A stretch of 62,824 nt of DNA, filler included, from Asterionella formosa (lineage: Eukaryota): the NCBI GenBank assembly GCA_002256025.1. It is 10 parts of 10 records of this genome, joined end to end, with 100 filler letters (N's around TTAATTAATTAA, not from the genome) between each part and the next. Parts side by side here need not be neighbours in the genome. Positions count along the whole stretch, not along the records: positions 1 to 18,042 come from NKIB01004177.1; 9 more parts are not named here. One strand, written 5' to 3'. A model generated the notes under the pieces. It saw nothing but the letters and a program-made list of their open reading frames with translations. It had not been told where the DNA came from and made no database searches. The stretch's first letter is position 1, and each line of letters starts with the position of its first letter. This document shows, one piece after another, positions 1-53,029 of this stretch. A program made the position numbers and the translations under genes.

Positions 1-569
1 GACGATGATGAATATATAGAACTCATGCATATAATGAACAAGAGGCGGCATAGCATACAAGAGGATGCATCGATATGAAAATTTAACTGTTGAAAATTAA
101 AGTTAAAAATATATATAATGTCAGAGAAGTAATCTAAAATATCTCTATTATCAGAGCGCAAGGACGATATTATGTAGCAGATCACCAGAATAATTTGTGT
201 TATAATACACACATGATATAATAATTTTTTATTATCAGAGCGCGCCCAGTATGTGAACAGTAACATGAATTTTATATAGGTGGAATTGATAGGGAGTCCA
301 AGAAGCCCCTCGAAAATCACAGGCTATGAAACAAAAATGTGACGATGGGCCCTGTTAAAAAACGAATGTGACACAATCTCCAATAGTAAGGTTTCGTATT
401 TGCTTCGTCTCCATCATTTATCATAATTGCTGTGCACACGTTGCTGGTACCATCATATCACCATAAAACTTGGGGTGTAGGCCTCGATGTTGTTTGTCTG
501 GCCTCGAAATACTGTCCGTAATCCATTGCCAGTCGTGGGAAGCAGAGTCAAGCACTTCACTGAACAACC

Positions 570-3500
570 ATGGCGCCACCACCAGCTAAACCAAAGCTCA
601 ATATGGAGGTGCTCAGATTGAAGCTGGCGTCCAATCAACATGCCTCGAGAACTTCAGCACCAGAACCTTTGGGCTTCACCACGGGTGCAAACTTCGATCT
701 CCCCTTTCATCTCGACGATGATCCACTGCTGCGGCAGCTCGCAGAGGATCGATTGAAGGAATTGCCATGTCATTCCATCGTCACCAGCAACAACATTTCC
801 GCTGGAAGGGCAACTATAGAAAATCAAAGACCGATGCTGCACTCGGAACTCCCGTTTCGAGAGGGAATTCAAAGGATCCAATATGAAGTTGCAAAGCCAC
901 CTGTTAGCACCGCAGCTGCTGTCGAAGCAACCGAACATCGTGTCAACCAAGGTGAAGCGCTAGGAAGCGCTTCATTCGTTTCCAAAGAAAGTTCAAGACC
1001 TGAAAAAAAGTCTACTAGAGTTGAAATGGAAGGAAGCAACAATTCTTCTGACGATAATTCCACTAATTCGCTGAAGCGTAAGCGACCAGGAACGCCAAAC
1101 GGTGACGAGGCGGTTTCGAATATCGAAAAGTTCAAAGATTATAGTACCAAACAGACCACGATAGTTCCAGCCACGCTGAAAAGTCCCACAAATTTGCCTT
1201 CTTGGCAAGGTGGATTTGACAAGTCTCATGCCAACGTGACCGATACCACTCATTCCCTTCAGGCTAACGAGAAATTCGATTGTAGCGATGATTGGTCAGA
1301 TGAAGGACGTGCATTGATTAAAAAAATTCATGCTTGTATCCTCTCAGATGAAGAGATCCTGACACAAATGGATATCATAGAAAATGTGATGGAATCCCAG
1401 TCCGAATCTGACATATCTCCCAAGTCAGTAACAAGTCATTTGTATGCCGCCGAGGAGGATTTTCTCGCAAAAGTGGATCGAAAGATTATGGCAGCGGAAA
1501 CAGATGATTTTCTTGAAAAAATCGGACGTAAGATTGATGATGCCGAGCTTAATAAAATAATGGATAACATTTACCAGCAAATTGTTGTCGCCGAATTCAA
1601 CGAGCGCTGGCCTGATGGAAAAATTCTCTGGGAAGAAGAAAATTTGAGAGAACCGAAGGATCCTACTGAACAATTTTCAGAGACAAATTGGGACATAGCA
1701 TTTTATGATGATAAAGATTTGAACCCGCATTTCTCTCCTCACCGAAAGAAGCGACAAGGAATCTCTTGCATGGTAGAGGACGAGGTTTTCTTCGAGCCTT
1801 CGGAGTTCGTTGCAATAAAGATTCTTCCAAAATTTATCGACTTGACTGATGAGCATATATTTCAAGCGGACATCCTGTTTAGGAAAGTTGTAAAAAAAGT
1901 GAAGGAATTGCACCCTAATGGTGTCCTTCGAATCTACCTGCGCGATCATGAGACAGACTCATCATCGGTCCAGCTTGAAGCCCGTGGAAACAAACCGCTG
2001 GTAAAAATCAGCTTGCACTTTATTCAGAACTTAGTAACAGCTCGGCAACTACGCTATCTAAGCTCTGTCAATCAGAAGAAGATGAACTCCTCTCGCGTTG
2101 CCAGTGACACAACGAAGGCGCCTTGTAAATTGTTCGATGAGAGAATAAGTGAAAAATCTAAAACCCAGGCAAGCGACAAGCAAGTAGATTATATCTTCTT
2201 TGGCCAAAAGGTGAAGGACCTGAAAATCAAAGAGCACGAATTTAGCGCAATCCCGCTAACATTTATCAAGAGTAGCATGTGGGAGCGCCACAAGGAAGAT
2301 ATCGGACGCCACTGTGATGACAAATGCCAGTGCCCGTTGAAGCTAGCAATGTTGACACGCAATGTAGTAGGAGATTTCATCAGGAAGCAGACCGAGAAAG
2401 ATCCAAACTGGAAAAACCCTAATAGACTTGTTGAGGGAAATTACCCTGTTGGTTTCATTGAAAACTTCATCCCGAAGTTTCTGGAAGTATTGAGAACTGA
2501 ATTTCCAAGCGAAAACCCAAAGGAATTGTACAGACGGCTCGAAGCCATGTGGCTGAAACACAAAGGATCGATTCAATACGGAATAACTTGCAGAAAAAAC
2601 TGTCATTGTGGCGAAGGTTGGGAGGTTGTCTTCAAGAAAGGCCGATGTGGAGATAATCGTACCACGCGTCCATCGAAACCTTCCATTACTTCTCAAGACA
2701 CATTAATGTCGATACCTCGCAACAAAACCAGCTTAATAGAGCCTTCACGATTGCAGTGTTTACCACAACCAGCGTCTTTGAAAAGAGACGCAAAGGAAAT
2801 GCGATCAAAAGGAGACCCGAAGGAATTCGTTATCGATTTTCCTTCTTCGCAAGGCATGGGCTTCTTTTGTGTGACGGACACCCGAGGCGTCTGCAAAATA
2901 ATTTCTGTAAATACGAAACAGCAAATTGATGCTAGACTCGCAGTGGGAACCATCATAGTTGCTGCTGCTATTTCAGGAAGCAGAAGTGAGTGGAACCACA
3001 TTTCATCCCATCGGGATATTGAACACATGTTTGAAAGTGCCAAGCAGAGGCGAGAGCTCATTTCTGTTCGCTTCATCAATTCCGAGGTCAAGGCAACCGA
3101 TATTCATCAAGATTTCAAAGTAGCGTGCAAGGATTGGGGTCCTGATGGTGTCTGGAGAGGCAAATATACTAAGTATCCCAATGGCTGGGCAGGTGGTGCC
3201 GCTCTCGCGTCAAGTGTTTCGTCGAAACTTAGCGAAAAGATGACTGCAGGGAAATATTCGGTGACGATGCCAAAATTGTCTCAGTTGCCCCAACCACTTT
3301 CGACGCCAACACTTTCGCAAGACGATTCCACAAGCTACGAAACCAAGAAGCAGCCTACAACTGTATCATTGCCTCCAACCGAACAACCTCTATTTGAATA
3401 TTTGTCTACTCAAGCCATCGCTAACCACAGAATGCACGGAACTGTCAAACCCATTTTGCGCATGGCGAAATTACGTTGGTCTTTCCATGCAGAGGAAGAG

Positions 3501-6032
3501 AAGAAGCAAGGATTTTTGCAGAACTATTTGTCAACTGTTGTCCCTCCAAAAAAGAATCCCAAAATATCGTTCGGGAAGCAGGTCGAGAAGCGATTTTATA
3601 ATCCTTCAGATACATCAATCGAAATGATGATTCCATTGACAAAAGAGGCAGAAACTGTTTTTCGAGAATCTTCTCCGGCAATTTCTGTGATCCTAAAGAA
3701 AGACAAGATGCAAACTCCAAGCTATGAAGCGCTCCTAGATGCAGTGAATAGCTCAAGTAAATCCTACACTGATTTATTCGAGTTATTAAAAGGAGGAGCA
3801 AATCCAACCATGACAGGGAATTCCGACAAAACCCCAGAATCTTATATAAAGGACAAACTCATTTCGTTGAATGGTGAGATGCTTCGATGCAAGGAAGGTA
3901 GCGCAACATGGACCAGCTTAAACATGCAATTCCAAGAATCTGATCGAAAGAAAAAGCTTCTAAAGATCTACACCATTGCTCAAGATGTAATGAACCAGGC
4001 CCGCTTTCTCAAATGTAATGAGCGATTAGATATTCAACTTGCTTGTTCCGAAAGTCTTTCATTGACCGAACTTGGACTTGAAAGAGAGGCTGATGATTTT
4101 GTTTGGTGGGATGTTTATGTGAAAGGGCAAAGAGTCCCTCGAACCCAACCAGCTACGTTGTCGAGTAGTATTGATTGGTTAAATGAGAAGGATTATCACT
4201 GCAATGAAAATCTCGATCTAGCCAAGGCCCGAGGAGAAGAAAGAAAATCCAACATTGTTCTTATTCTGAATAAGGGTAATCCAGATAGTGCCTTCTATGA
4301 ACTTGGTAGAAAGACAATCACCCTACGGGAGATTCGGCAAGCTTCAATTACTGATGGAAAGCTTCACAGTGACCTTGAATCAAGCAAGTACCTGAATAGT
4401 TGCAGGATCATTTTGAATGTGAAACGAAGGGCGGCTGAAAAAGACTACCGTGAAAAGAAACGTCAGGAAGCCACAAAGAAGCTCAAAGATCTACTACAGC
4501 AAATTGACAACTTTGTTATTGAAACGGGAAATGTTTATATGGAATCATTGGCAGCAGAAATACGATTGTCTATGCCTCATGCCCCTGCCATGTCCTTGCT
4601 GCATGCAGCAATTTATCTCGATGAGCCTGACTATGTTGAAGTTCTTATGAAGAAATATGGTGCCGACCCTCACTCAAAGAAATCTCGTGAGACACCTTTG
4701 GCACTTGCAGAGAAGAAGTTTGACAAGGTTTTAGACGACATTGAATTAAAGAAGAAACGATGTAGAATCCATGGTCTTCTTCTTGGCAAGTCAGTGGAAC
4801 AGTTGGAATCTGAGATGATTACAAATAGCAGTATTGATGATGACAATGATGATGATGATGACATTGAAGCTGAGCAAAGCAATGTAATGCACAAACTCAT
4901 TCCCGCAATTCACACGATGATCCCACCAAAGCACTCCCATCAATCAAACATAGATATCCAGAATGCCTGTACCCTACAAGCTTCAGTTTCAGAATCCTTC
5001 TCTCAAGGAAACAAAATCGTAAGCAGTATGAGCCATGGAATTTTAGAGTCATCGAACTCTGTACGTACTGCACTGCCATCAAATTGTAACACTCCAAGTG
5101 ATGTGCATTGGAACTCAGACAGTCAAACAAGAAACTTATACATGGCACCTCCCAGCTCACAAAATTTTGTTCATTTGAAATTGGATTGGATGCAACCCAA
5201 AACTCGAGGGGAATGTTTATTCTTCAACAAACCTGGAAAATGTAGACATCATCACTTATGTGAATTCTCCCACATCCAGCCATCGCTTGGAAACATTGTA
5301 GACCAGATTGAAGTCTCCTCCTCCTCTTTATCTAGTATGCATTGTCCTAATGTTAGCATCCGAAATGCCATGTCAAATGGTGAACAATATTTCACAGCTG
5401 GATACCTTGCTGGTGATGGTACCCGATATTATGCTGAGGGTGGACGAGCAGAAAAAGTAAATGGTATATCTTGGTACAGGAGTAAATGGGAGGCAGAAAA
5501 TGCACTGCTCAAGGTGGTATTCATACACCAGAATAATCTGCACCAGAAGCCCTATGTCAGTTATGAACAATCAAGTAAGTCAACGTCACATCCTTTGTTT
5601 GCACAACCCCAAAATGCCTACCAGCAAAAATGTTTTTCTTCACATTCTAACATGAATGTTTTCCACACACACCCACAAGGAGCATTACCAGGAAAAGATG
5701 ACTTTATTTTCAGAAGGTTGATAGATTCAAATCTTAGTAACATTTATGTGTTGTTGTACAAGTCACCATTGAGGAGGGATATGTGGACTATGCATCACAA
5801 GCATGATCTATTTGCAGCTGAATTTACAGCAGACGTTGATGGTATCATACAAAGATACCAGTCGGCTCACCACCCTGGAGGAGAATACCATAAACCACGA
5901 TGGTGGTACAAGACTGAAAAGGAGGCTAAGGCTAGTGCATTTGACTGCTTCTTGGATCATGCTGCAGAACGTGGCATGGTAAATCATGATAAGTTGAGCC
6001 GCATTGATGGGACAAGATTTGTTTTTAGTTAA
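570..6032 (+). CDS. Large multidomain orphan protein (1820 aa): twin W..H-x-CxxxCxC modules, PDZ-like, ankyrin-like x2, C2-like, CCCH zinc finger, two dsRBD-like modules
   Basis: Uninterrupted 5.46-kb ORF. CCCH CLFFNKPGKCRHHHLCEFSH (~5214-5273); ankyrin-like SLLHAAIYLDEPDYVEVLMKKYGADPHSK..ETPLALA; C-terminal FTAGY...WYRSKWEAENALL and FAAEF...WYKTEKEAKASAF. The ORF is confident, the domain calls are by eye. Confidence 0.85.
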   Translation: MAPPPAKPKLNMEVLRLKLASNQHASRTSAPEPLGFTTGANFDLPFHLDDDPLLRQLAEDRLKELPCHSIVTSNNISAGRATIENQRPMLHSELPFREGIQRIQYEVAKPPVSTAAAVEATEHRVNQGEALGSASFVSKESSRPEKKSTRVEMEGSNNSSDDNSTNSLKRKRPGTPNGDEAVSNIEKFKDYSTKQTTIVPATLKSPTNLPSWQGGFDKSHANVTDTTHSLQANEKFDCSDDWSDEGRALIKKIHACILSDEEILTQMDIIENVMESQSESDISPKSVTSHLYAAEEDFLAKVDRKIMAAETDDFLEKIGRKIDDAELNKIMDNIYQQIVVAEFNERWPDGKILWEEENLREPKDPTEQFSETNWDIAFYDDKDLNPHFSPHRKKRQGISCMVEDEVFFEPSEFVAIKILPKFIDLTDEHIFQADILFRKVVKKVKELHPNGVLRIYLRDHETDSSSVQLEARGNKPLVKISLHFIQNLVTARQLRYLSSVNQKKMNSSRVASDTTKAPCKLFDERISEKSKTQASDKQVDYIFFGQKVKDLKIKEHEFSAIPLTFIKSSMWERHKEDIGRHCDDKCQCPLKLAMLTRNVVGDFIRKQTEKDPNWKNPNRLVEGNYPVGFIENFIPKFLEVLRTEFPSENPKELYRRLEAMWLKHKGSIQYGITCRKNCHCGEGWEVVFKKGRCGDNRTTRPSKPSITSQDTLMSIPRNKTSLIEPSRLQCLPQPASLKRDAKEMRSKGDPKEFVIDFPSSQGMGFFCVTDTRGVCKIISVNTKQQIDARLAVGTIIVAAAISGSRSEWNHISSHRDIEHMFESAKQRRELISVRFINSEVKATDIHQDFKVACKDWGPDGVWRGKYTKYPNGWAGGAALASSVSSKLSEKMTAGKYSVTMPKLSQLPQPLSTPTLSQDDSTSYETKKQPTTVSLPPTEQPLFEYLSTQAIANHRMHGTVKPILRMAKLRWSFHAEEEKKQGFLQNYLSTVVPPKKNPKISFGKQVEKRFYNPSDTSIEMMIPLTKEAETVFRESSPAISVILKKDKMQTPSYEALLDAVNSSSKSYTDLFELLKGGANPTMTGNSDKTPESYIKDKLISLNGEMLRCKEGSATWTSLNMQFQESDRKKKLLKIYTIAQDVMNQARFLKCNERLDIQLACSESLSLTELGLEREADDFVWWDVYVKGQRVPRTQPATLSSSIDWLNEKDYHCNENLDLAKARGEERKSNIVLILNKGNPDSAFYELGRKTITLREIRQASITDGKLHSDLESSKYLNSCRIILNVKRRAAEKDYREKKRQEATKKLKDLLQQIDNFVIETGNVYMESLAAEIRLSMPHAPAMSLLHAAIYLDEPDYVEVLMKKYGADPHSKKSRETPLALAEKKFDKVLDDIELKKKRCRIHGLLLGKSVEQLESEMITNSSIDDDNDDDDDIEAEQSNVMHKLIPAIHTMIPPKHSHQSNIDIQNACTLQASVSESFSQGNKIVSSMSHGILESSNSVRTALPSNCNTPSDVHWNSDSQTRNLYMAPPSSQNFVHLKLDWMQPKTRGECLFFNKPGKCRHHHLCEFSHIQPSLGNIVDQIEVSSSSLSSMHCPNVSIRNAMSNGEQYFTAGYLAGDGTRYYAEGGRAEKVNGISWYRSKWEAENALLKVVFIHQNNLHQKPYVSYEQSSKSTSHPLFAQPQNAYQQKCFSSHSNMNVFHTHPQGALPGKDDFIFRRLIDSNLSNIYVLLYKSPLRRDMWTMHHKHDLFAAEFTADVDGIIQRYQSAHHPGGEYHKPRWWYKTEKEAKASAFDCFLDHAAERGMVNHDKLSRIDGTRFVFS

Positions 6033-6449
6033 GCTGTTTCTGTCTGAGGTTTGTTGATAAAGTTGTAATTGGTGACTGAAGAAGCAAGAAATCATGTGAT
6101 CTACACCACATATGTGAGTTTTTTTCAGTGGCAGAAACACCTAAGAATTAATGAAAAGTGAAAGGCACCATCAATTTTGATATCTATGTATTGGGAAGCT
6201 GAGTGCTGAGCACTGTTGCTTACCATAGGTTTACAGCACATTGATATTTTGTCCACCTTTCAGCATGATAATTGAGGCTCTGACAATGGCAATACTCACA
6301 GTTGTTTGCTGTTGTTGCCAGTATGATCATTATCAGCCTCTAGTAGTATCTAGTATGTTCTACTACAAGTACCACCAGTCAGATATGGCCATATGGCCTT
6401 GCTGATAATCTATGTTGGTACAGCATGAATGTTCCTTGAGATATGGCAA

Positions 6450-6591
6450 CATCGAAGCATCTCACCATTCAACGAAATGAGTTTGTCCTTTATATAAGAC
6501 TCTGGGGTTTTGTCGGAATTCCCTGTCATGGTTGGATTTGCTCCTCCTTTTAATAACTCGAATAAATCAGTGTAGGATTTACTTGAGCTAT
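6450..6591 (-). repeat. 142-bp inverted copy of 3748-3889 (coding sequence of the 1820-aa gene)
   Basis: Its reverse complement matches atagctcaagtaaatcc...gagatgcttcgatg, with one mismatch seen (taagactctgg vs taagattctgg). Confidence 0.95.
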
Positions 6592-6648
6592 ATCATCCGG
6601 ATGTGTGAGTTCCCCCAAAAAAGCAGAAATTTTTTTGATTTTTGCATT

Positions 6649-6669
6649 TATCTCTGTTAAGATTGGCCC
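6649..6669 (-). mobile_element. Solo PIF/Harbinger-type terminal inverted repeat
   Basis: The reverse complement GGGCCAATCTTAACAGAGATA matches GGGGCAATCTTAACAGAGATA at 22208, the terminus of a Harbinger transposase remnant. It is flanked by CTG (CWG-type target). Confidence 0.6.
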
Positions 6670-7064
6670 CTGGGTTAGAACCACGACGCAAGGTGTTTTA
6701 GTTTCTTGTGTGTGCATCATACAGATATCATGATAATAATAATATGCGAACTCCAAGTTGACACCTCGTGAAGTGATGCTGCTGCTAATACTTGACAACA
6801 TGCGATGACGATGTTATTTATAACTTGTCAATTGCAGTGAACTTGGAATATATGCTGTCCATGCGGTACAATATGTAGTATGTACTAAAGATACGGGAGT
6901 ATTTTTCTCGGCACATGATCACTCCGCCTACCGCACCTATGTACAGCGGGCGGATTGGAAGCATGATTGCTTCTGAGGATTGTCCACCCTTTTTCTCTTG
7001 ATGGATTGCAACCCAACACACAAAAAGCATTCCATCATTTGAACTTCGTTTTCAAAGAGACACA

Positions 7065-9428
7065 ATGATCGCTCGTGCTGCTGCTGCTCAACGACTGTGT
7101 CGCTCACTAGCTAGAACTGGAACTAGTGCACCCGGTCTTGGCTCATCGCTGGAAGGCACTTCTCCCTTCGCTCGAAAGAAGCCAATTTCGACAGAATGCC
7201 GCTTCCATTCGACTGCACATGTTGATGTCGAGTCTCACTATGACGAATCTACAAAATGTAATTTTATGCCTACGACTGAGCGGAACTATGAGTTCTTTCA
7301 GAATGTTGAGCTTACTTCTGATGGAGTGGCTGTTATTCGATTTGATTGTCCTAAGTCAGTCAATACAATCAGTTTTGCACTCAAGGACGAAGCCAAACAA
7401 TTATGGAAGAAAGAGATTGAAAGCAATCCTGCTGTCAAGGCAGTTGTCTTTTCATCCGCTAAGCCTGGCATGTTCATCGCAGGAGCCGATATTTTTGATA
7501 TCAAGGCGATCGAAGACAAGGCACAGCTTGTCCCTCTGATTGAAGACGGCCTCAATTTCTTCCAGCACATGAAAAAGAAGGGCATTCCTCTTGTTTGCGC
7601 CATCGACGGTCCTGCGCTTGGAGGGGGACTTGAGTGGGCTCTGTGGTGCGACTACCGTGTTGCTTCTGATAGCAAAAAAACAAAGCTTGGTCTCCCAGAA
7701 GTCAAGCTCGGCCTTCTCCCTGGTTTTGGCGGTACTCAAAACCTTCACAAGCTCATCGGTCTACAAGCAGCCATGGATGCTATGCTAACTGGCAAGGACA
7801 TCCGACCTGATAAAGCCAAGAAGATGGGCCTCGTAGACCTGGTCACTAGTCCTGCTGAAGTCGAGAGGGTTGCTATTGAATCCGCTGTCCAGCTCGCCAA
7901 AGGTACTTTGAAAGTCAAGCGCAAGCCAAAGGCCTGGATGAACCGCCTTTTGGAGGACACATCGTTCGGGCGATCCATTATATGGAAAAAGATCGACGAA
8001 ATGGTTATGAAGAATACAAACGGAAACTACCCTGCTCCATTGAAGATCATTGAGTCGGTTAAGTATGGAATCGACAACCCCTCCAAGCGGTTTCAAAAGG
8101 AGCGCGACCTTTTTGCCGAGCTTGCTGCTACTCCAGAGTCAGAAGCTTTGATTGGCATCTTTGATGGTATGACTCAAACTAAGAAACACTCATTTGGAAA
8201 TGTCGCGCAGCCAGTGACGACTATTGCTGTCATGGGTGCGGGGTTGATGGGAGCTGGTATCGCCCAAGTTTCTGCTGAGAAAGGTTTCTCTGTTCTCTTG
8301 AAGGATCGCGATGATGCCTCAGTCTCTCGTGGCCAAACGTACATGAATGAAAACTGGAGAAAGAAACTGTCCAAACGGCATATGACACAGTACCAATTCA
8401 GTCTTAATACTTCAAACGTGACCCCTCTCACGGACGACATTGAGTCCTGGAGGCGACATTTTGGGAAGGCAGACCTTGTCATTGAGGCGGTCTTTGAAGA
8501 TCTTGACTTGAAGCGCAAGATTGTTGCCACAATGGAAGAGGTGACTCCTGAAAATTGTATCTTTGCCACCAATACTTCTGCCATTCCAATCGGGGATATT
8601 GCTGTTGGCGCTAAAAGGCCAGATCAAATAGTTGGTATGCACTACTTTTCCCCAGTCCCTCAGATGCCACTATTGGAAATCATTCCACATGCTGGAACTT
8701 CTGATGCTACGAAGGCCACAGCATTTGAGGTCGGAGTCAAGCAAGGCAAGACTTGTATCATTGTCAAGGACGTTCCGGGGTTCTACGTAAATCGTTGTTT
8801 GGGTCCTTTCCTGGTCGAAGTCAGTGCGTTGGTACGTGATGGTGTTGGCCTTGAGCATTTGGACAAGAGCATGAAAAATTTCGGTATGCCAGTTGGTCCG
8901 ATCACTCTAGCAGACGAGGTCGGTATTGACGTGACTTCGCATGTAGCCAAATTTTTGTCGAATGCCGACCTTGGTACTCGCATGGGTGGAGGTGATATCG
9001 CCTTGATGCAAAACATGATCGAGAAGGGTTGGTTGGGTAAGAAGTCTGGAAAGGGCTTCTACTCCTATAAAGGAAATAAGAAGATCCTCAACCCCGATAT
9101 CAATGGATATATCAAGACATTTGTTACTAAGGATTTAAAGCTCGCAGAGAAAGAGATCCAGGATCGAATGGTTAGTCGTTTGGTGAACGAAGCCGCCAAG
9201 TGTTTGGAAGACGAGATTATTGAGGACCCCATTGTTGGTGACATTGGATTGGTCTTTGGTATAGGTTTCGCCCCATTCCGTGGAGGTCCATTCCGATACC
9301 TCGACCAAATCGGTGTTGAAAAATATGTCGATATGATGAATGGTTTTGCTGACAAATACGGTCCACAATTTGAGCCTTGTCAATTGCTGAAAGACTATGC
9401 TGTATCTGGGAAGAAATTCCACAAATGA
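7065..9428 (+). CDS. HADHA: Mitochondrial trifunctional enzyme alpha subunit (enoyl-CoA hydratase / 3-hydroxyacyl-CoA dehydrogenase)
   Basis: Crotonase motifs FIAGADI, ALGGGLE, LPEVKLGLLPGFGGTQ; Rossmann GAGLMGAGIA; GMHYFSPV; PGFYVNR; Arg/Ala/Ser-rich transit-peptide-like N-terminus. Confidence 0.96.
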   Translation: MIARAAAAQRLCRSLARTGTSAPGLGSSLEGTSPFARKKPISTECRFHSTAHVDVESHYDESTKCNFMPTTERNYEFFQNVELTSDGVAVIRFDCPKSVNTISFALKDEAKQLWKKEIESNPAVKAVVFSSAKPGMFIAGADIFDIKAIEDKAQLVPLIEDGLNFFQHMKKKGIPLVCAIDGPALGGGLEWALWCDYRVASDSKKTKLGLPEVKLGLLPGFGGTQNLHKLIGLQAAMDAMLTGKDIRPDKAKKMGLVDLVTSPAEVERVAIESAVQLAKGTLKVKRKPKAWMNRLLEDTSFGRSIIWKKIDEMVMKNTNGNYPAPLKIIESVKYGIDNPSKRFQKERDLFAELAATPESEALIGIFDGMTQTKKHSFGNVAQPVTTIAVMGAGLMGAGIAQVSAEKGFSVLLKDRDDASVSRGQTYMNENWRKKLSKRHMTQYQFSLNTSNVTPLTDDIESWRRHFGKADLVIEAVFEDLDLKRKIVATMEEVTPENCIFATNTSAIPIGDIAVGAKRPDQIVGMHYFSPVPQMPLLEIIPHAGTSDATKATAFEVGVKQGKTCIIVKDVPGFYVNRCLGPFLVEVSALVRDGVGLEHLDKSMKNFGMPVGPITLADEVGIDVTSHVAKFLSNADLGTRMGGGDIALMQNMIEKGWLGKKSGKGFYSYKGNKKILNPDINGYIKTFVTKDLKLAEKEIQDRMVSRLVNEAAKCLEDEIIEDPIVGDIGLVFGIGFAPFRGGPFRYLDQIGVEKYVDMMNGFADKYGPQFEPCQLLKDYAVSGKKFHK

Positions 9429-9989: not shown

Positions 9990-12179
9990 ATGTCTTCGGA
10001 AGATGTCATGACGATTACACCGCTGGGAAGCGGCCAGGAAGTGGGACGGTCGTGCCACCTGCTCGAGTTTCGCGGGTTGACAATTTTGCTCGATTGCGGA
10101 ATCCATCCAGGATATGAAGGCATGAACGGCCTTCCATATCTTGATCGAATCGAGCCAAGTCAAGTTGATATTCTTCTTATCACACATTTCCACTTGGATC
10201 ACGCAGCGACCTTGCCCTACTTTACGGAACGAACAAGTTTCAAGGGGCGCATCTTTATGACACATCCAACCAAAGCCGTCCTGCGCCTGCTTCTAGGGGA
10301 CTTCTTGCGGTTGCTGCAAATGAAGAATGCGAAGCCAGAAGATGTCCTGTATACAGAGTCGGAACTATCATCGTGCATGGACAAGGTAGAATTGATTGAC
10401 TACCATCAAACTGTGCAAATCAAAGGTTCTGGCTTGAGTTTCTATGCGCTCAATGCAGGCCATGTCCTCGGTGCTTGCATGTATTGGCTAGATTTCGGCG
10501 GCCGTTCGCTGCTTTACACTGGGGACTATAGTATGGAGGAAGATCGACATTTGATGGCTGCAGAGGTACCCACCAAGAAGCCTGATGTTCTAATTTGTGA
10601 ATCCACCTACGGTGTTCAAGTCCATGCCTCTCGACCAGAGCGGGAAGCTAGATTTACTGGAACCATCGAACGCGTAGTAACTCGAGGAGGGAGATGCCTC
10701 ATACCTGTGTTTGCTTTGGGTAGAGCACAAGAACTTTTATTAATCCTCGACGAATATTGGCAGGAAAACGCTCACCTCCAGAAAGTGCCCATTTACTACG
10801 CTTCCAAAATGGCCTCGCGCGCTCTTCGAGTTTACCAAACCTACGCAAATATGATGAATGCTCGTATCCGTGCGCAGATGGATGTATCTAATCCATTTCA
10901 TTTTCAATTTATTCAGAACCTGAAGTCGATTGACGTCAACTCGTTTGATGACTCGGGGCCATCAGTAGTTTTTGCCTCCCCTGGTATGCTTCAATCCGGA
11001 GTGTCACGTCAGCTATTTGACCGATGGGCAGCAGACCCAAAGAATGGTGTATTGATCGCTGGTTATGCAGTGGAGCACACTTTAGCCAAAGAAATTATGA
11101 ATCAACCAAAGGAAGTTGTTACACAAGAAGGACGACGTCAACCTCTGAATTGTTTAGTGGATTATGTTTCATTTAGTGCTCATGTTGACTTCGTACAAAA
11201 CCGAGCATTTATCACATCTGTAGAGCCAAAACATATTATTCTTGTGCATGGACAAAAGGATGAAATGGGACGTCTCAAGTCTGCACTCCGCTTGCTGTTC
11301 CAACGACTACCAGAGTCGAAACAACCTACAATCACAATGCCGCCCAATTTGCAACAAGTCAAACTTAAATTTGCAAGGCGCCGACAGGCAAAGATAATGG
11401 GTGAGCTTGCCGAGGGCGATCAGCCCAAAGAGGGAGAAGAAATTCAAGGAATTTTGGTTACTCACAACTTCAGTAGCAAAATTGTGGCTCCCAAGGACTT
11501 GAGTACATACACACCTCTTCGGGTGGGTGCCATTTCGTCCAAGTTACATGTCCCTTTTTGTGGCAATACGCATACCCTTCAACTATTTTTGTCAGAAATG
11601 TTCACTGGTGTGACATGGAAGGAAGGAGAACAGGGTGTTGATGGCCAAATCATCATGGTCTACAGTTTACGTTCCGATAATATTACAGTAACAACTGGAA
11701 TGAGCCGAGGAGTTGCAACTGTGGAGTGGAATGCAAGCCCAGCTAATGATGTCATTGCGGACGCTGTTGTGGCATTATTGATGCATGCACAAAGTAGTAC
11801 AGCTTCTATTCGCCTAACAAGCAAACCTTGTCGTCACGGAAATTCTGACGACAGTGACGAGCCATCAAGTAAAAAGCTGAAGACGACGAGCGAGAGTAGA
11901 TTACGGCTGATTAGGGACGTCCTCCTTGATCAGTTTGAATCTGTGGAAACGGTATATGATTCCAACTCTGCAACATATGAAATAACTACTGATTGTGGGT
12001 CGGGACCAGGCACAGTAGTAGACGATGGAACCTTGGTTTGCACTGCCAATGTCAAGTTTGATGATAACGAAGGAACATGTGCCACCATAACAGTGGAATG
12101 TGCAGACACAAAACTTGCAAACAATGTACGCGACTGCTTACAAAACATTGCAGCAACATCTGCTCCACTGCAAACATGA
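9990..12179 (+). CDS. CPSF3: Cleavage and polyadenylation specificity factor subunit 3 (CPSF73/YSH1), MBL/beta-CASP endonuclease
   Basis: PLGSGQEVGRSC, THFHLDH, NAGHVLGA, YTGDYS, PVFALGRAQE, SFSAHVD, ILVHG, and a CPSF73 C-terminal EWNASPANDVIADAV. Confidence 0.97.
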   Translation: MSSEDVMTITPLGSGQEVGRSCHLLEFRGLTILLDCGIHPGYEGMNGLPYLDRIEPSQVDILLITHFHLDHAATLPYFTERTSFKGRIFMTHPTKAVLRLLLGDFLRLLQMKNAKPEDVLYTESELSSCMDKVELIDYHQTVQIKGSGLSFYALNAGHVLGACMYWLDFGGRSLLYTGDYSMEEDRHLMAAEVPTKKPDVLICESTYGVQVHASRPEREARFTGTIERVVTRGGRCLIPVFALGRAQELLLILDEYWQENAHLQKVPIYYASKMASRALRVYQTYANMMNARIRAQMDVSNPFHFQFIQNLKSIDVNSFDDSGPSVVFASPGMLQSGVSRQLFDRWAADPKNGVLIAGYAVEHTLAKEIMNQPKEVVTQEGRRQPLNCLVDYVSFSAHVDFVQNRAFITSVEPKHIILVHGQKDEMGRLKSALRLLFQRLPESKQPTITMPPNLQQVKLKFARRRQAKIMGELAEGDQPKEGEEIQGILVTHNFSSKIVAPKDLSTYTPLRVGAISSKLHVPFCGNTHTLQLFLSEMFTGVTWKEGEQGVDGQIIMVYSLRSDNITVTTGMSRGVATVEWNASPANDVIADAVVALLMHAQSSTASIRLTSKPCRHGNSDDSDEPSSKKLKTTSESRLRLIRDVLLDQFESVETVYDSNSATYEITTDCGSGPGTVVDDGTLVCTANVKFDDNEGTCATITVECADTKLANNVRDCLQNIAATSAPLQT

Positions 12180-35170: not shown

Positions 35171-36266
35171 CTGCGGTGAAAGGTGGCAGCGCTTTTCCTT
35201 TTGAAAGTTTGTAATGGTTACAGGTAGTAATCTAAATAAATTGAAATAATTTGAGATTTTCATCATTTCGGAATTGGTGAGCCGGACAGACTTCCAATGA
35301 AGTAGGTTGAAACCGCTACATGGAATTTTTAGTATATAGTGCACGCGATTCGCTGATTACCGGACCTTCCAGCATGTGGATGCAGGAGGTACTTGGTACC
35401 TGGTACCTCCTCGTAAAGTATTTGCACAGGGTGGTGTTTGTTATAGTCACGTGATCGTTTTCCTATTCTATCGCCTATCACATGCTGGAGTGATAGTAAC
35501 AGCCAAAGCAAAAGCATCATTTGACTTGCACAGCTTTAAGTTTGTCATAGTCACGTGATCATTTTCGTATTCTATCCCCTATTACTTGTTCGTGGTGAGT
35601 TGCCCCTGGTATACACCTGGTACCCTGATACCATGGTAACAGGTTACAGGTAATGATGTACCATGCTCCTTGAACACAATATATATGTATATATGATAGA
35701 AATAAATAATAATAATTGTTTTTTTGATTTTGTTCTGTTGATTTCGACATCAAGTATGGCATACGAACGGATTCTGGATTCCGTCCTGTGGTACACTCGT
35801 GTGTGGAATATATTGTATGTAGCCTGTTCATATCTGACCTACGTGAATGTCGAAGTGTCCGGTAAAACTGAAATGCAACTCAATTATAGGAGCAATGGTA
35901 CGCGCATGATCATGGAAATTCTTAGAATTTTTTCGAGACGGAAGCAAATCAATCATACAAACCGGGGCCGGTACCTGGTGAGCGATCTTGCGCATCAATA
36001 CAGATGTATATAGGGTTAGTGTTATATCATATATGTATGAGAACTCAATAATGAGAGAACTCGACTAACCCTCATTGTATACTTTGGTGTCGACTTGGAG
36101 AACGAGTTACACACAAGGATTAACAAATAAGCTCATATATTCAACAAATACTACTACTTCTAGTTANNNNNNNNNNNNNNNNNNNNNNNNNNNNNNNNNN
36201 NNNNNNNNNNTTAATTAATTAANNNNNNNNNNNNNNNNNNNNNNNNNNNNNNNNNNNNNNNNNNNN

Positions 36267-37387
36267 ATGATGCTCTCCCAAAAGCAGCGTCGATACGCTA
36301 CAATCACCAATGGATGCAAAGGCTTAAAGTGATAGGCCTCCTTACCCTCACCACGAATCGAATACTTCATGTCGTATCCTATTTCGTCTCCTGAAGTTGA
36401 CAAAACACAACAAACAGCAGATTCTGTAATTTGATGAAATTTGAACTTCTTTTTCTCGTCACGCAATTTTTCAAGAGACTGTCGAATTGAGTGTAATTCA
36501 TGTCTTTCATATTCTTTAATGGAAAACTTGAAAGAAATCAGATTCTTCAGCTGCAAGGGCACCCCACCAGTCACCTCAAAGATTTCGGTACTATTAATCC
36601 GTGTTGCCACTTCCTCAAAGGCTGCACATGTTTCCTTAAAATCCATGTTGCAAGGGTGATTGTATTCCTCAAACCCCTCATGACTTTTCTTGTAGGCATC
36701 CTCATTGTCTGTTGAAGCTGAGATGATGGAGACAATGCGGAGGTCTCTGTTCATTATGTTGTTGATGGCACTAAAAGGAAAAGGAAGCAAACCCAAGTCT
36801 TCAGCTTCCTTTAGCTCTGGTCGATAAAATAACTCGTTCACCTGGTCGAAAACGAGGACCCATTTCTTGCCCATACTTTGAAGAATCAAGTCAATGTTAG
36901 CTACAAAAGTATACAGATTTCTCGGTATATCCAAACTTGAGCCAGCCTTCATCTTGAGAGCCGATAATGAAGTACCGAATGAACTGCAGATTGCAGTGTA
37001 CAAATCGTCAGCATCGTCCCATTGACGACAGTCTGGAATAAAAGTTACGAGGTACTGGCAGCTGCTGTCATATTGCAGCGTACGAACCAAGTTGACAAGT
37101 GAGTGCGACTTGCCAATTCCATGTGGTCCCTTAATCATGATTCCAGTCGGACAATATTTATTTAAGGCATTGTCAACCATTGTCATGATTTCCTTCACAA
37201 TTTTAGGGCGATATAGGATTCCCCTTCTATTGCAATCATTAAACCGCTCACGTTGGATCCTTTCCATCCAGTAAGTATCTTCCGGGGAAAAAGCCGGTAA
37301 AGTAAAATCAGAGTCAGAGTTTTGATTGTTCGAACGAATCTTGTAGATATGCATTTCCTTTTCAACATTCCGCTCCTCCTGCTCCTT
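36267..37387 (-). CDS. Partial P-loop NTPase (Crinkler/STAND-like), open at both contig ends
   Basis: Walker A GPHGIGKS, Walker B WVLVFDQ, and TGGVPL (GxP motif). Confidence 0.75.
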
Positions 37388-39830: not shown

Positions 39831-39930
39831 NNNNNNNNNNNNNNNNNNNNNNNNNNNNNNNNNNNNNNNNNNNNTTAATTAATTAANNNNNNNNNNNNNN
39901 NNNNNNNNNNNNNNNNNNNNNNNNNNNNNN

Positions 39931-41051
39931 ATGTGACGTGTTCGACGGCTGCTTGAAGCTGTTCCATTCATTGCCAGCAGCATAGTGCTTTGGTTATCTT
40001 GATATATGATAGACTCCTGTACATCATACCCCTGTGCCTCCAAAAAATACCTGGTCCATAATACCTGGGGCATGACATCATTGACACCAACCAGTTCCCC
40101 TTCAGTTGAGCTTTTTGTGTTTAGCTTTTGTCGTGTGGATGTGCCATAAATGATGCCTTTGCCCATTGACATGGCACCGCCTGTATGACTTCGCATGTCT
40201 GGGTGAACCACAAATGACGCATCCACCCACCATTTGATAACTCGCGTGTTGTTTGCCTCCAGGATGAGGGGCATGTTGATCGATCCACGCAGGTACCTTA
40301 TGGTGCGAGTCAACTTCTTGTAGTCGTCTTCGTCTGGACTTTTAACCCTAGTACATAGGAATGCGACCGCAGTTTGTATGTCGGGACGTGCCCGTTTGCA
40401 CAGGAACAGCAGCTTAGCAGTGTTGTGATGGTATAGCTCGGCCGTTCTTACATCCAGTTTAGTGGTTTTGTCATTAACATCGAATAGGTGCTTTCCAGCC
40501 GGATTTGGTGCAGTTCCATCCATGTCTGGTGGCAAGTCATTCATCATCTCTTTGATGTAGTCAATCATTGTGAATTGAACTTTCCCTTTTTCGTTGAAGT
40601 TGATAGTCATTCCAAGATATTCATGGGTCTTTCCACGCGTTTTTGTGAGTGGTGCTGCGACTCCAAATTCGGTCTCGAGTAGGTCAATTACCTTAGTGAC
40701 AACAGCAGCATCCACATGCGATATTTTGAGATCATCGACATGCCATAATATTGTGCATTGCTTTCCGTCAATGACTTTATTCATCACACATGAGTCATAT
40801 GGGTTTAGTTCAAACCCCCATTTGCCAAGCTGCGAGCTGAGTCGTCTCCAGAACAGTAGTGCCGCCTTGAGGGTCCCATACAGCGCCTTTTTTAGTTCAA
40901 CGTATAGCACTTGTTTTCCTCGTTCGATTTGTATATGTTGGCGATATAATTTTGGGTCAATGCGCACCAGGAGCTCGGCCATTTTTCCTTCAAGCTTCAT
41001 ATGAACTAGATCATCCATGTCAGCTTGCATGAATGCGCCAGGAATATCAAC
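39931..41051 (-). mobile_element. Ty1/Copia retrotransposon RT/RNase H fragment from a different family
   Basis: DIPGAFMQA, LKKALYGTLKAALLFW, NPYDSCV, WHVDDLKISH, RARPDIQTAV, WWVDASF, NTKSSTEGELVG, YQDNQS. Confidence 0.95.
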
Positions 41052-46215: not shown

Positions 46216-49200
46216 ATGGTCCATTCGCAATCCGATCTGCCTGAAGGTGAACCTTCTCTATTAACAACATCAGTTACTGTGTCCGATACGACCTCGCCGG
46301 CTCATTCCCCTAGCAAGCTGCAAGATCCGGCCTTTAGAATACTTGGCAAAGGCGACCTTGTTCGGATAGCTGAAAGGTACATACTTGAACTGTCATTTCC
46401 CTTGCTAGACTTCGTCAACGGTGATTGATCATACACTAACTTGTACGTTTTTGCTTTAGACGTGGACCTGGAATAAAAAATAGAGACGGGGGTCTGGGGA
46501 GAATCATACGATCAATCTCAATACCTCAAGACGAACTGGATGCTATCCAGTCGCATGGTCCCTTGGATAAACATCCATTCCAATATGATGTGGATTTTGT
46601 GCTCGGAGGCAAGATATGCGGTGTACATCGACGCGACCTTATTTACACAACTGCTGATGCAGAAGGAATGACAGCTGATGGTGATTCGATGAGAGCTAAA
46701 CGTAAACGAAAGACAAGTTCAGCTGTTCTAGCAAGTCAATGCGCGCCCGGATCTCCCAAAACGAAGAAAGGAAAACCTGCCGCGAAAGGAGCGACAAAGA
46801 CGGGAGCAGCTAAAAAGAGATCTAACGGTAATGGTCTCCCAACATCAAAGAGAAAGTCTTGCGCCTCGAAAGGTGCGACCTCTGAATCTTCAAAAAAGCC
46901 TAAAGCTGATGAATCTTTGGTTGCCGCCGAAAGTAACTTCATTCCAAAGGACGTGTACGAGAGACATTACCGAGAGTTTGAGAGAATGGTCACTCGCTTA
47001 GAGAAAATAGATCAATTCGGTTTCTTCTGGGAAACTGAAGAAGGTGAGGAGTTCAATGGCGGGGACCAACCCATTGCACGGGTGTCAGACCACCTGCTAA
47101 ATGACACGGAACTAGGATATTCAAACTCATCATTAGTCCCTCCTGGTCAGATAGAGACCCAGATAGGTACATCTGCTGCTGGAGAGGTAATTTTTCCACC
47201 ACCTTTTCTATCATCCCATCCTATATTGGATCCATTCGTGAAGCCACCAATTTTTTGGGGCGATATCAGGAAGCGCCGCGAGGCTGGAAGGTACGAGATG
47301 GATAGAGTAACAGCGATTGAAGAGGAGAGGCGAAGGCGACTTGCACCGTATAAAACTTGGAAGCGAATGAACAAGAGAGTGACAGAGAGTCTGAAACCAA
47401 AGATACCGAAGGGAATGCATCCACGTGTTTTGAATCCAAAAGGTGTTCACTGGGACTTGTATAGGAAGGACATTGTCGCCATGTGTGATGCAGCTTTGGC
47501 GAAAGCTGGGGACAACGGTGAAGGTGGATCTGGTACACTGGGTTATGCTGCCAAGAAAATCAAAGATGTGAGTTCAGGCAGGTAGTCTCATGTTCAAAGT
47601 TCATTTATTTTTTTCGTTTTGCTAATATGCCATGTTGCTTTGAATAGGAAATGGAGAAATTGTACGAAAGAACAGGAACGCGTCACTTTGCAGAATTGCG
47701 AAATGCAGATGCTCGCCACGAATTCTCCCTAGCGCTGCAAGCAAGCGATAACAAAGAAGCTGCTTTTCAAGGTGACTGGCGGCGAATACCGTTTCCTGAA
47801 CGAGAGTATGATCGTCTCTCATCAAATCTTATTTGTTCGGGATTGGGACCAATTGATGAGCTTAGCGCCTCTTATGAGCTTCGAACTACTTTACCCGATG
47901 GTTTTTTGGGGATTTCTTATAAATATAACGATACTGGCCAAAGTGAAGGGTGGATGAAATCTGTTTTATGCGAAAGTTCTCAGGAAAAGGAAAGAAAGGG
48001 GACCACTGAAAATCGTAGTAACAACGAGGCCAAGGCGGCAGAGCTGCTAGCATCTGATCAAGGTGTCGTGAGAGCTCAAGTTCAAGCAACGATGCAGCAT
48101 CTTTTGATACAAGTACAAGACAAAGTGATGACAGACCAAGGCATACTAAGAGGTCAAGAACTTCGGGTTGCCAACTGGGAGAATTCTTTGCCTGACCCGG
48201 AGTTAGTGGAACAGCCTGTTTGGGGAATGGATTGCTACACTCGTCGAAATGTTATGATTTGCTTGTCAGTTGAATTCGATTCGGAAACTGCCCTAGAGTA
48301 CATAGAGCATTGGCTGCTACCGGCCATGAATGCATGTCCCGCGAGTTTGGCCCATGACATGACCAATGCCGCCAAAATCTTGGAAGAAATACCACTGCAG
48401 GAATCAGACAAGGATGGCAACGCATACTGGAGTCATTCATTGCTTGGGCGAGCTCTGACGGCCAAAATTAGAAACTTTGGTCCTCCATGGCTAACTTCTG
48501 TTTCTTATCAACTTCGCCGCGCAATCAGCACTCTTGGATACGATTTCTTTCGTGTTCACCCGAAAGGTCACGGATCGATTGTTTTGAGTCCCAAGTTGAA
48601 AGCAAACACACTTGTTACTTACTATAGGGGCGAAGTCTACCCCTCCTGGAGATGGGGAGAAAAGATGGATGCTATCGAGATGACACAAGAACGACTGGGA
48701 CTTAGACCAAACCTTCCGGATTTTTACAATATGGCTCTCGAGCGCCCACAAGCCGATCCGCGAGGTTATGGGCTTATGATCATTGATGCCTCCCGTAAAT
48801 CAGGCCATGGATCTATGCTCTCGCACAGCTGCGAGCCTACGTGCGAGGTCCGCGTGGCCTCTGTTAATGGTGTTCTAAGTCTTGCCATGACTACTTTGCG
48901 TGATATTGAACAAGGAGAGGAGTTGACTTTTGACTACAATGCCGTTACTGAATCTCTCACAGAATACAGTTCTGCTGTTTGCTTGTGTGGCTTTCGCAAA
49001 TGTCGGGGGTCTTTCCTGCATTTTGCAACAGCAGATTGCTATCAACGTGTTTTAAATAGGAACTCCCCAATAGCAGTACGCTTCGCGAATCTCGTCAAGG
49101 GGTGCATGAAAAAGGTAATGGGTACTGAAGATGAGATAATACTGACAAACCATGGTTTTGGATCTGCGGCATTCGGTGCAGTTAGCTTCAATCGCTACAA

Positions 49201-52200
49201 ACTACTAGGGGGGATGCCCAGCACGGCCAGACTCCACTCGTTGCAATATGTTCCTGTGTGGCTACGAACGTATGTAGCAGATATTCTACGATACATCGAA
49301 TATGAGCGACGGGCACTTCCTGTTGCCCTTCTATGCGATCACCTTGAGAATTTCAAGGTGAAACCGCCCGAAAGTCTAGGGAAATCAAAACCGCGAGTAC
49401 CATCGAAAGTTCCTGATAATGTCAAGCCTAAAGTCCGTGACAAACCCGAAAATGCGTACATCTTTTATTGTAGACAGAAAAGGGAGGAATTTACTGCACT
49501 TTTGCGAGAGAAAGGAGTGTTGGAAAATTTCAAGGGTCTCGAATCCGACCTAGCTGTTAAGAGAGCAATGGGTACTTCGTGGAAAGCACTAAGTGAGGAC
49601 ATGAAATCCATGTGGAAACAAAAAGCACTAGATGACTGGACAACGAATGCAACAGTGAATCAGCAATCAGGTGAGGTCAGGGTTAAGAAGCTAGGTGGAG
49701 GCCCGAATGATACTGACGTCATCGAGCGGCCGTCAATAGTGAAAAAATCTGATGATTCATTAGAAAATGATGAAAAGCATACGATGAACTCAATGAATTC
49801 TCTTACCAGTGCCAAGATCTCGTTCGAGGCTGCAGATGCCGAAGGAGTATCTGCAATGGAACAGCGTATTCAGCAGCTAACTCAAGCTCTCTCACGAATC
49901 GGTCGTGTTTTGGATCGTCACCGTCAAGCAGCACTGGGCTCAAGTGTCCCATCGGTGGAAACAATCAATCAGGTCCACGCGCCCTTATCTATTATGTCAG
50001 ATAGGAAAGCAATTAGTTGGATGTGGACGGATAGTGGGGGACCGGTCCAATCGCTCTTGCATTTCGTTGAGAACGAAAAATGCGCCAGTCCAGGCTTAAA
50101 AGAGTCACTAAAGAGAGTTGTCATGAAGAACAAATCGCTTTCTGATTTCTCCCTCGGTTGTGTTGAATTGAATAGCTGTGATTTGTCGCCCTCAGAAGCC
50201 CGAAATCAATTGGTTCAAGCATTATGTGAAATGCGGGATTGTCTTCTTAGTAGTTTGAATGAAATGGACAAAGATATGAAACGCTGTAAACGAGACTTTG
50301 TCCGGAAGCGAAAGGCGGAGCGAGAATTTTCGGAGGTCCCGGAGGCACGCTCCATTGTTGCAATGGTTCTTCAAGATTTGGTGAATCAAATCGCTGGTGA
50401 CAAATTGAAGCCTGTGTCACTATTGCATTCCGCTCCAGGTTCGGTTCAACCGCATCGCCTTCCGACGAAAGAACACGAGCAGCTACAGCTTGCTGTGGAT
50501 CAAGGCTTATGCGCACACACTCGTACTTTGTTACCTATTTATCGAGAGCTTGCGCGATTAATGGAGGAGATTCGTCGACGAGATGGTGAAAAGCAACGTT
50601 TTGTTTTTGACAAGGAGTACATCAAGATGCATGCATCACCGACACTCGTGGCCTACATCGCTGAAAAATCTATATCGCCTACATTTCACAAAAATATCAC
50701 CCGTGCCTTGGTCCCTTTAAAATTCAAAGATCTTTTTGAGGCATTGCGATGTATGATTCGCAAACGTTTCAAGAGCGACATGCCAGTTGATGACCTAATG
50801 GACGAGTTATGTCTCATTGATTTTCCAGTGACGAAGAGGGAGTCCCCCAAAGCCGTACCCCCTACCAAGCAAGTATATAAGGAAGCTGAAGTCATCATTC
50901 CCACCTTCACCCAAACCAGTAACAATGAGATGGAAGAGCCTTACAAATCAGGATTTTTTTCCATCGAGAAGGTTCCGTGGCTAGAGTATTTCGACGACAG
51001 GTGGAAACTTGAGGCGGCAGCAGATTTATTGGTCCTTTATGCGCGCACGACAACTTTTTTCGAGCTCATTCCCTACACTCCCTTGAAATCCACCCCCATT
51101 GAAGTATATGCCAGGGAGCTTGGAAATGCTGTGCCTAAATCGAAGATAGAAGTGGCACACGCGAGCTCTGTTGGCGATGCGGAAGGCGTTGTATTAGTTG
51201 CTTCGAACAACGTACAAATTGCGAAGAATCAAATCAACATTTCACCAGGTTCCAAAGAAGAGGATAGATTGCCTTCTAACCCAGGAACAGAATCGACAAC
51301 GATAGATGACCTTTGCAAGCCCGACGACGTGATTACAAATGTGACAGTATTATACGATGGTAGTTTCGTCTTATCCCAACTACTACAATGGTACAACGGA
51401 GGAATTGGTCAGAAATCTGGGCTCCCAGATATGCTTGGCTGTGTCGTTTTGCCTTCCATGAGTGGTTGTTTCAACGGGACTTTGAAGAAGAAGGGCAGTA
51501 AAGCAAACCCCAAAACAACGTATGCCTCTGAATTGCGGCAGTTGCTAGTTAAATGGCTAGAAGATCCACGGCAAAGAGGGGGTCCTCTTCCAGATGATCT
51601 CCGCCAAGTTTTTGCAGGCTCCAATGAAAGAATTTCTTCAGAGTCGAACTTGGTTTTCATGGGATCTCCCGTCCTTGACCTTCTGATAATGGGAGATGAC
51701 ACAAATTTAAATTTAGCTTTGAATGTTCTTCGGGATCACGCCGCGACTGAAATGGATTCATCTAGTCACAAGCCAGAGTCCGCCACGGACCACCTTCAGT
51801 CCACAGTCGACGAAGGTAGACCCGCACAAGCTGTTGCGAATTGGGTGCAATGTGAGAATCCAAAATGCTTGAAATGGCGGAAGGTTCCGTGGCATGTGGA
51901 CCTCGACATGTTACCGGAAAAGTTCTTTTGCATAGACAATGTGTGGAATATCTCGTCAAACTCTTGTGATGCCCCAGAAGAGGAATGGGATGAAAACGAC
52001 ACTCAATTACGAAATGACGGGATTGAAAAAAGTATTGATCATGCATCAAATGCAGTACCGGTACTTCCAAAAAGTAACACGAAAGCCACCAAGACGATCA
52101 TGACCAAAAGGCAGGCTGCTAAGGTACGAGCAGAAGCACGAGGGTCCTCAACACTATTGAAGCAAGGTATAACTGCTTCGGCGACCACTCGTTGCGAGGG

Positions 52201-53029
52201 TCTGCCTTTAACCTCGGAAAAAGAACTGCATTGCAATTATAAAGAGTTGAGTAAGGAGCAAATCGATAAAATATCCACCTCTGTTCCACATGCATTTCTT
52301 CCAAAAGCCAACAACAAAGCACAGAAGAAAATCAATACAAAGATTCATGTCTCGTATATGCGAGCAGAAGAAGGAGATACCTCGACGCTTTTGGAGCCAA
52401 GTCCAACCCTTTCGTCGCCCACTCAGTATGAGGAGCTGTCTGCAATTTCTGAAAAGGAGTTGCCTTGCAACGATGAAGGATTGATTGATGGAGTAGGGGA
52501 AACGACTAGCGCAGTTGAACCCCACGTTTTGAGTCGCTTGCCAAGAAAGAAAATGCGACCAGAACAGGACAGTAATTCTGGTCTCCTTTCCTCGTTTGTA
52601 AAACCATTCGCAACGTTGGACTCGATTCAGCGGGAACTGAACGGTAGAATCCCCCAAAAGCACGGTTGTCAAGCTGCGGTACCTAGAAAGAAGTCTTCTT
52701 CATGCAAACAGGAGTCACCAATGAAAATTAATGGAAGTCGAGAACTACCGGCGGATGTACCCAGAAAGAAAAGTTCACCTCAGACTGAGAAAGGCTCCGT
52801 ATTAGCTACTGAAGCGAAAAATAATGAGCCATCATCAATTCAAGAGCCACTTATTACTCCAGCAAAGCAGAGTCGATGGGGGCCGCGCTTGACATTCCGA
52901 GAAGAAGTACCAGTAGATCTGAATGGGACGTCACGCTCGGATTTTTTTGATTATGAGTCGGAACAAGAATGGTTTGAAGACAAGCCTCATCCTTTGCTCG
53001 GCTCAAGATTTCTTCAACGGAAGTGGTGA
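46216..53029 (+). CDS. ATXR3/SDG2-like SET-domain histone methyltransferase with bromo-like, HMG-box and CW zinc-finger domains; exons 46216-46376, 46460-47567, 47648-53029
   Basis: YRGEVYPSWRWGEK, DFYNMALERP, SHSCEPTC, GEELTFDYNAVTES, CLCGFRKCRGSFL; HMG DKPENAYIFYC...WKALSEDMKSMW; CW WVQCENPKCLKWRKV...FFC..NVW...CDAPEE. Two GT-AG introns join the frames. Confidence 0.9.

Follow-up and report, generated by a model that had tools for sequence, protein, structure and literature searches.

Tandem dsRBD proteins, which include HYL1/DRB, Loqs, TRBP, R2D2, RDE-4 and Staufen, are non-catalytic and possess two C-terminal dsRBD folds, as does the protein described here. The canonical dsRBD contacts RNA via a GPxH loop and a KKxAK motif. 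The protein also shares the canonical C-x8-C-x5-C-x3-H finger of CCCH proteins (PF00642), the type I KH fold of Nova and PCBP, and the PDZ fold of the scaffolds PSD-95, PICK1 and MUPP1, with its hydrophobic-Gly-hydrophobic loop. In addition, it has a pair of modules that look like members of the HMG-box superfamily, which comprises HMGB, the ribosome-associated protein Ccdc124 and the C-terminal domain of YABBY. For diatoms, Dicer, Argonaute and RdRP along with methylation-associated sRNAs have been described in one paper (PMC4247016). A review (PMC11910954) treats the gene-silencing mechanism as unresolved and, citing a study, states that Dicer in diatoms makes RNAs of 26-31 nt, for the most part from repressed transposons. 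As a factor that might link RNA to chromatin in diatoms, the present family is a directly testable candidate.

The window, namely the whole analysed stretch of 62,824 nucleotides (filler included) from Asterionella formosa, has an open frame at 570-6032 that spans 1820 codons. The gene is expressed, with RNA contigs over it in all three RNA runs examined; they cover 534-6144 with a polyA tail in run X11 and 344-6479 in run X6, and those of X11 and X14 stop near 6150. It is also spliced, as 5575-5679 is absent from the X11 and X6 contigs; in X14, one loose end has the spliced junction and another contig enters the intron. Since the RNA skips this segment and the database protein P0002 lacks exactly the 35 residues encoded by it, the product has 1785 residues, not the 1820 given in the first-pass annotation, from which the in-frame 105-nt intron was hidden. 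RNA coverage, splicing and a conserved family rule out an artefact or chance ORF. The same contig encodes, at 7065-9428 and 9990-12179, an enoyl-CoA hydratase/3-hydroxyacyl-CoA dehydrogenase (ECH/3HCDH) of beta-oxidation and CPSF73, which marks the host as a eukaryote. The sequencing runs that contain this DNA are mostly from lake or freshwater samples. The features are as follows, all residue numbers referring to the unspliced 1820-codon frame.

570..6032, + strand: gene and open reading frame, 1820 codons unspliced, 1785-aa protein once the single intron is removed
1071..1088, + strand: basic NLS-like motif LKRKRP (residues 168-173), from the sequence
1800..2078, + strand: type I KH-fold unit (residues 411-503), without GxxG loop
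2157..2399, + strand: W module 1 (W1), helical, W571..H574-x7-C582xxxC586xC588, likely zinc site, divergent HMG-like
2439..2651, + strand: W module 2 (W2), HMG-box helix 1-2 register followed by H-x9-CxxxCxC
2823..3083, + strand: PDZ-fold domain (residues 752-838) with conserved L-G-F/Y loop
3135..3200, + strand: W..W..GWAGG motif (residues 856-877), predicted in the groove of its own PDZ
3732..3869, + strand: tentative ankyrin-like repeat 1 (ANK1, residues 1055-1100), from the family profile
4017..4445, + strand: tentative C2-like unit (residues 1150-1292), from hhalign and conservation
4593..4724, + strand: ankyrin repeat 2 (ANK2, residues 1342-1385) with LLHAA motif, from Pfam and PDB sequence profiles
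5214..5273, + strand: CCCH finger C1549-x8-C1558-x5-C1564-x3-H1568, from the sequence
5316..5546, + strand: degenerate dsRBD-fold unit (DS1) with an extra β-hairpin, repeated with the CCCH finger in relatives
5575..5679, + strand: in-frame, stop-free intron of 105 nt, GT..AG, from RNA contigs and a homologous protein
5694..6014, + strand: second dsRBD-fold unit (DS2), α-β-β-β-[hairpin]-α, with a partial KKxAK motif (EKEAK)
6450..6591, − strand: inverted copy of CDS 3748-3889, 142 nt, 99% identical, adjoining a dispersed repeat end

A first homology search gave nine full-length homologs, and an index-free search of 1.84 billion representatives (50%-identity clusters) extended the family to 229 relatives at E<=1e-3, at odds with the earlier view of this protein as an orphan. 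The two named relatives, from Thalassionema nitzschioides and Attheya, are diatoms of two classes, which fits the proposed lineage specificity; the assignment of the family to diatoms rests on these two names. Two segments of the gene matched only the gene itself in a first-look search of the host genome, sensitive to close paralogs, and the family is apparently single-copy. A single module order runs through the 150 relatives listed of the 229, and module profiles on 153 proteins gave it as KH-like, W, W, PDZ, GWAGG, ANK1, C2-like, ANK2, (CCCH-DS1)n and DS2. At the thresholds used, the complete string is present in 10 of these 153 proteins, many of the others being fragments. The least variable portion is W-W-PDZ-GWAGG, not the dsRBDs. 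In a tree of 93 proteins built on W-W-PDZ, the group of this gene has its KH unit ~20 residues from W1, compared to ~180 or more elsewhere. The ~160-190 additional residues between KH and W1 in other clades (P0010, P0062, P0072 and others) read by eye as a second PDZ-type unit (IEVD.K.D...LG), which is absent in the clade of this gene; P0035 has a weak PDZ_6 match upstream of W1.

The domain string that had been read by eye is borne out, its PDZ and dsRBD folds by model-based fold searches, and the KH unit at residues 411-503, overlooked in that reading, has to be added to it. Pfam gives this protein just a weak ankyrin match and no family over its whole length, and seven family proteins searched against each of NCBIfam and PHROGs had no useful family match; a whole-protein match to a known family, which the first-pass annotation had named as evidence against itself, is thus found in none of the three. 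Free-standing DS1-DS2 relatives of 121-385 aa numbered 0 among 85 candidates, a metagenome scan gave 37 pattern matches with none confirmed, and the viral fold library gave no match below E 1e-3; the single phage match to DS1 (tblastn) was judged to be chance. ESM Atlas returned no usable match to two segments and a homolog search restricted to 3690-5000 aa came up empty, results to which no weight is given. Searches of PDB sequences with DS-only and W-only alignments returned nothing meaningful, and those with two other family alignments returned lists filled by ankyrins. No report of such a protein or domain combination was found in the article texts searched; an orthologue could be listed in supplementary gene tables. 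The folds are mostly known ones, and their arrangement and variants are absent from every library searched. Altogether, this is a large, conserved, apparently single-copy family missed by Pfam, which unites dsRBD-, CCCH-, KH- and HMG-like modules in a single polypeptide. Structurally new are a paired HMG-like module with an H/C/C/C site, a repeating unit of CCCH finger and hairpin-bearing dsRBD, and a PDZ whose groove the protein's own internal motif is predicted to occupy. Also new are the KH-fold unit without GxxG loop and the gain, among relatives, of chromatin modules at the N-terminal side and of RRM or KH at the C-terminal side.

Structure models and fold searches assign both DS1 and DS2 to the α-β-β-β-α dsRBD fold, in agreement with the fold that the first-pass annotation had put up for testing. 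Compared to HYL1/DRB, Loqs, TRBP and Staufen, however, they have a β-hairpin before the last helix, a WY motif and a degenerate KKxAK motif; the protein also differs from tandem dsRBD proteins in lacking a Pfam dsrm match, in the repetition of DS1 along with the CCCH finger, and in having ~1500 additional residues (KH, W-W, PDZ, ANK and C2-like). The finger itself keeps the canonical spacing at residues 1549-1568. CCCH-DS1 repeats as one unit, up to seven times in relatives (P0154), which leaves one finger per dsRBD-fold unit instead of the tandem fingers of CCCH proteins. The dsrm profile (PF00035) had no match in 65 proteins or in separate segments, and hhalign of the DS units against a dsRBD profile did not rise above shuffles. 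An AP2/ERF-like DNA-binding domain is a conceivable rival identity for DS1; a four-sequence AP2 profile did not exceed shuffles on the DS units, and no AP2 chain is present among the fold-search matches listed, which are filled by DS2.

The RNA-contact motifs of the dsRBD and KH units are degenerate, partly or wholly lost, and RNA binding is accordingly putative. In DS2, the first lysine of KKxAK is kept in 0 of 20 sequences, the second in 15 of 20 and the third in all 20, and the GPxH loop is absent; the unit is basic, with a median net charge of +6 in the family. DS1 conserves no canonical RNA-contact position, its conserved residues being small or aromatic rather than basic. Such losses would suit a protein-only scaffold, in which the KH and dsRBD folds have given up RNA and now form dimerisation or partner surfaces, as the type-B dsRBDs do (dsRBD5 of Staufen, dsRBD3 of Loqs and TRBP, and the CTD of DRB4). 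Interaction-type dsRBDs are among the top fold-search rows; however, the RNA-binding HYL1 dsRBD1 and MLE tie with them in Z, the CCCH finger is intact, DS2 combines its basic character with an invariant third lysine, and one relative has DS2 replaced by an RRM. We consider a scaffold of this kind quite unlikely.

The structure model and fold search support a type I KH fold at residues 411-503. Its GxxG RNA-binding loop is missing, G..G being present in 3 of 58 KH units of the family, and the second helix is absent from the model. Upstream of the KH unit, an acidic helical stretch (window 1443-1619, residues ~292-350) with an apparent 18-residue period (E..L..IDR.I..AE) is conserved within the gene's own clade. 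Further downstream, ANK2 agrees with the ankyrin consensus and ANK1 less well, judged on their sequences; Pfam Ank is above cut-off at ANK2 in P0019, P0021, P0022 and P0044, and Ank_2 matches the region of P0044 that corresponds to ANK1. The C2-like unit reaches 7.7% in hhalign (E 0.0045) against 14 host C2 domains, and 0.12% when reversed; it has no Pfam C2 match and, in the family alignment, no conserved acidic calcium ligands. The ANK-C2-ANK block may serve as a docking surface for proteins.

W1 and W2 align with each other at 97.8% in hhalign and are, on this comparison of their profiles, homologous. W modules occur in 135 proteins, exactly as a pair in 117 and in six copies in three (P0071, P0034 and P0082). 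The motif W..H-x(n)-CxxxCxC is found in 251 of 267 modules, with n = 7 or 9 in 231, and the 99-100% invariance of its H, C, C and C suggests a zinc site. Both modules are helical in the predicted structure, with pLDDT >90. The HMG helix 1-2 register F..L..E.P......L...L...W is kept by W2 in 85 of 117 proteins, by W1 in 0 of 117 and by 12 of the 20 sequences of the host HMG set. In hhalign, W2 gives 72% to host Ccdc124 and 30-54% to host HMG profiles, with a score against HMG of 21.3 (at most 12.8 in 40 column shuffles); W1 gives 13-22% to the HMG set, and W2 of P0058 matches Pfam HMG_box at E 0.017. Downstream of helix 2, the predicted structure continues with a Cys loop and shorter helices; its fold-search lists are filled by PDZ and KH. 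The W modules resemble helices 1 and 2 of an HMG box with the invariant H/C/C/C site as a cap. They differ from the HMG-box superfamily in that H-x(7|9)-CxxxCxC follows the Trp where HMG has its long third helix, and in being paired or, in the three relatives above, sixfold. They match YABBY-like loci weakly or not at all; a YABBY identity, at most 1.3% by profile, was rejected, and Pfam EGF_STAB1-2 matches on the CxxxCxC stretch were set down as cysteine-pattern noise.

Besides LKRKRP, basic clusters are present at residues 392, 1126 and 1394. An NLS-like motif occurs in 45 of the 47 family proteins of at least 1500 aa, and these 47 hold 138 such motifs, compared to a mean of 51 and a maximum of 72 in 50 shuffles. 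A Pfam scan of 55 relatives revealed N-terminal additions, namely HA in six, zf-CW in one, HMG_box just upstream of W1 in two (one above cut-off), and an AT-hook and a C2H2 in one each, both below cut-off; a fusion seen just once could stem from faulty gene calling, and these counts are inflated by kinship. Towards the C-terminus, an RRM takes the place of DS2 in P0033, and KH_1 lies ahead of the first CCCH in P0023. N-terminal chromatin or DNA modules, C-terminal RNA modules and the enrichment of NLS-like motifs together suggest that the protein is nuclear and faces DNA or chromatin at one end and RNA at the other. Elsewhere in the window, a different contig encodes a 1792-aa SET-domain protein (47651-53029) that also bears SDG2_C in three stretches, zf-CW and a weak HMG box; there are also a fragment of an RVT_2 (copia-type) reverse transcriptase (39879-41030) and, near it, an AT-rich AAA/NACHT-like ORF (36215-37354).

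Ccdc124 as the top HMG-like match of W2 would also fit a post-transcriptional mRNP regulator of Staufen-/tristetraprolin-like logic, in which CCCH, dsRBD and KH would bind mRNAs, ANK, C2 and PDZ would bring in membranes or effectors, and RNA or ribosomes, not chromatin, would be the target of the W modules. The confidently placed nucleic-acid folds (KH, CCCH and dsRBD) are all of RNA type, and RRM and KH have been swapped in among relatives. We nevertheless hold such a regulator to be unlikely, since several relatives gain chromatin modules beside the W pair, NLS-like motifs are enriched and calcium ligands are lacking in the C2-like unit.

The PDZ fold and its carboxylate-binding loop are both present according to the structure model, fold search and motif, and Pfam detects no PDZ in this protein. 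The GWAGG motif is found in 101 of 107 PDZ-bearing relatives. PDZ chains with an extension past the domain (3hpk, 3hpm, 5jxb and 7cqf) align up to model residue 480, which is G875, whereas the alignment of plain PDZ chains mostly stops near model residue 443-452. These ranges suggest that the protein's own W873-A874-G875 sits in the PDZ groove. Unlike PSD-95, PICK1 and MUPP1, the protein is predicted to plug its groove in cis with this internal motif, in which case the PDZ would be structural or self-inhibited and not free to bind tails. The label "signalling" given to part of the string is weakened by this apparent self-occupation of the groove and by the lack of conserved acidic residues in the C2-like unit.

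A Dicer-like gene of full type in the host (L130, contig C12837) shows helicase traces, Dicer_dimer, a weak PAZ and a pair of RNase III domains. The same genome encodes another protein with two RNase III domains, of 1401 aa (L131:2098-6303, contig C7307), and has an 899-aa frame with two canonical dsrm and no further Pfam family (L124:3693-6392, contig C14374), which is a candidate DRB/TRBP-like protein. In the Dicer-like gene, a Pfam scan of its frames found no dsrm, and the tandem dsRBD folds of our protein lie near DRB, HYL1 and Loqs structures, both of which would agree with a dedicated Dicer cofactor in the role of DRB/TRBP/R2D2 in diatom small-RNA biogenesis. However, the canonical two-dsrm protein that the host already has speaks against the gene as an ordinary Dicer partner, the most constant part of the family is W-W-PDZ-GWAGG, and a genomic link is absent, the neighbours being a beta-oxidation enzyme and CPSF73; we regard such a cofactor as highly improbable. 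The "RNA-regulation or silencing scaffold" of the first-pass annotation, itself an inference, is likewise held back by the lost RNA-contact motifs and by the host Dicer with its separate canonical tandem-dsRBD protein.

We therefore favour a non-enzymatic nuclear RNA-chromatin adaptor, at a probability of roughly 45%. The CCCH-dsRBD end would hold structured RNA or RNA-processing partners, the tandem, presumably zinc-capped HMG-like W modules would grip DNA or chromatin, and the PDZ would be kept structural or self-inhibited by GWAGG in its own groove. The adaptor is favoured by the dsRBD folds of DS1 and DS2, the canonical CCCH spacing and the KH fold, by the repetition of CCCH-DS1 in the manner of multivalent nucleic-acid binders, by the retained second and third lysines of the basic DS2, and by the HMG register of W2 together with the relatives' additions and NLS enrichment. 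Its non-enzymatic nature is favoured by a Pfam scan of 65 family proteins, in which catalytic domains numbered 0. A bolder version, which we find very doubtful, is a diatom-invented RNA-to-chromatin coupler, whose tandem zinc-HMG modules of a new type would sit on DNA or nucleosomes, whose repeated CCCH-dsRBD units would trap nascent or transposon RNA that is structured or double-stranded, and whose PDZ would be a self-plugged gate; if true, such a coupler would supply a missing link of RNA-guided silencing in diatoms.

The inverted copy of CDS 3748-3889 lies 420 nt beyond the stop. RNA run X6, which extends to 6479, has the allele of this copy at 3839; pairing of the CDS with a long 3' or antisense RNA is therefore conceivable. 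An autoregulatory hairpin was set aside, as the copy directly abuts a dispersed repeat end at 6590-6672, which we take to be PIF/Harbinger and which is present at 13 further places in the host genome. Six aligned copies of this repeat share the TIR-like common end ...AAGATTGGCCC and diverge beyond it.
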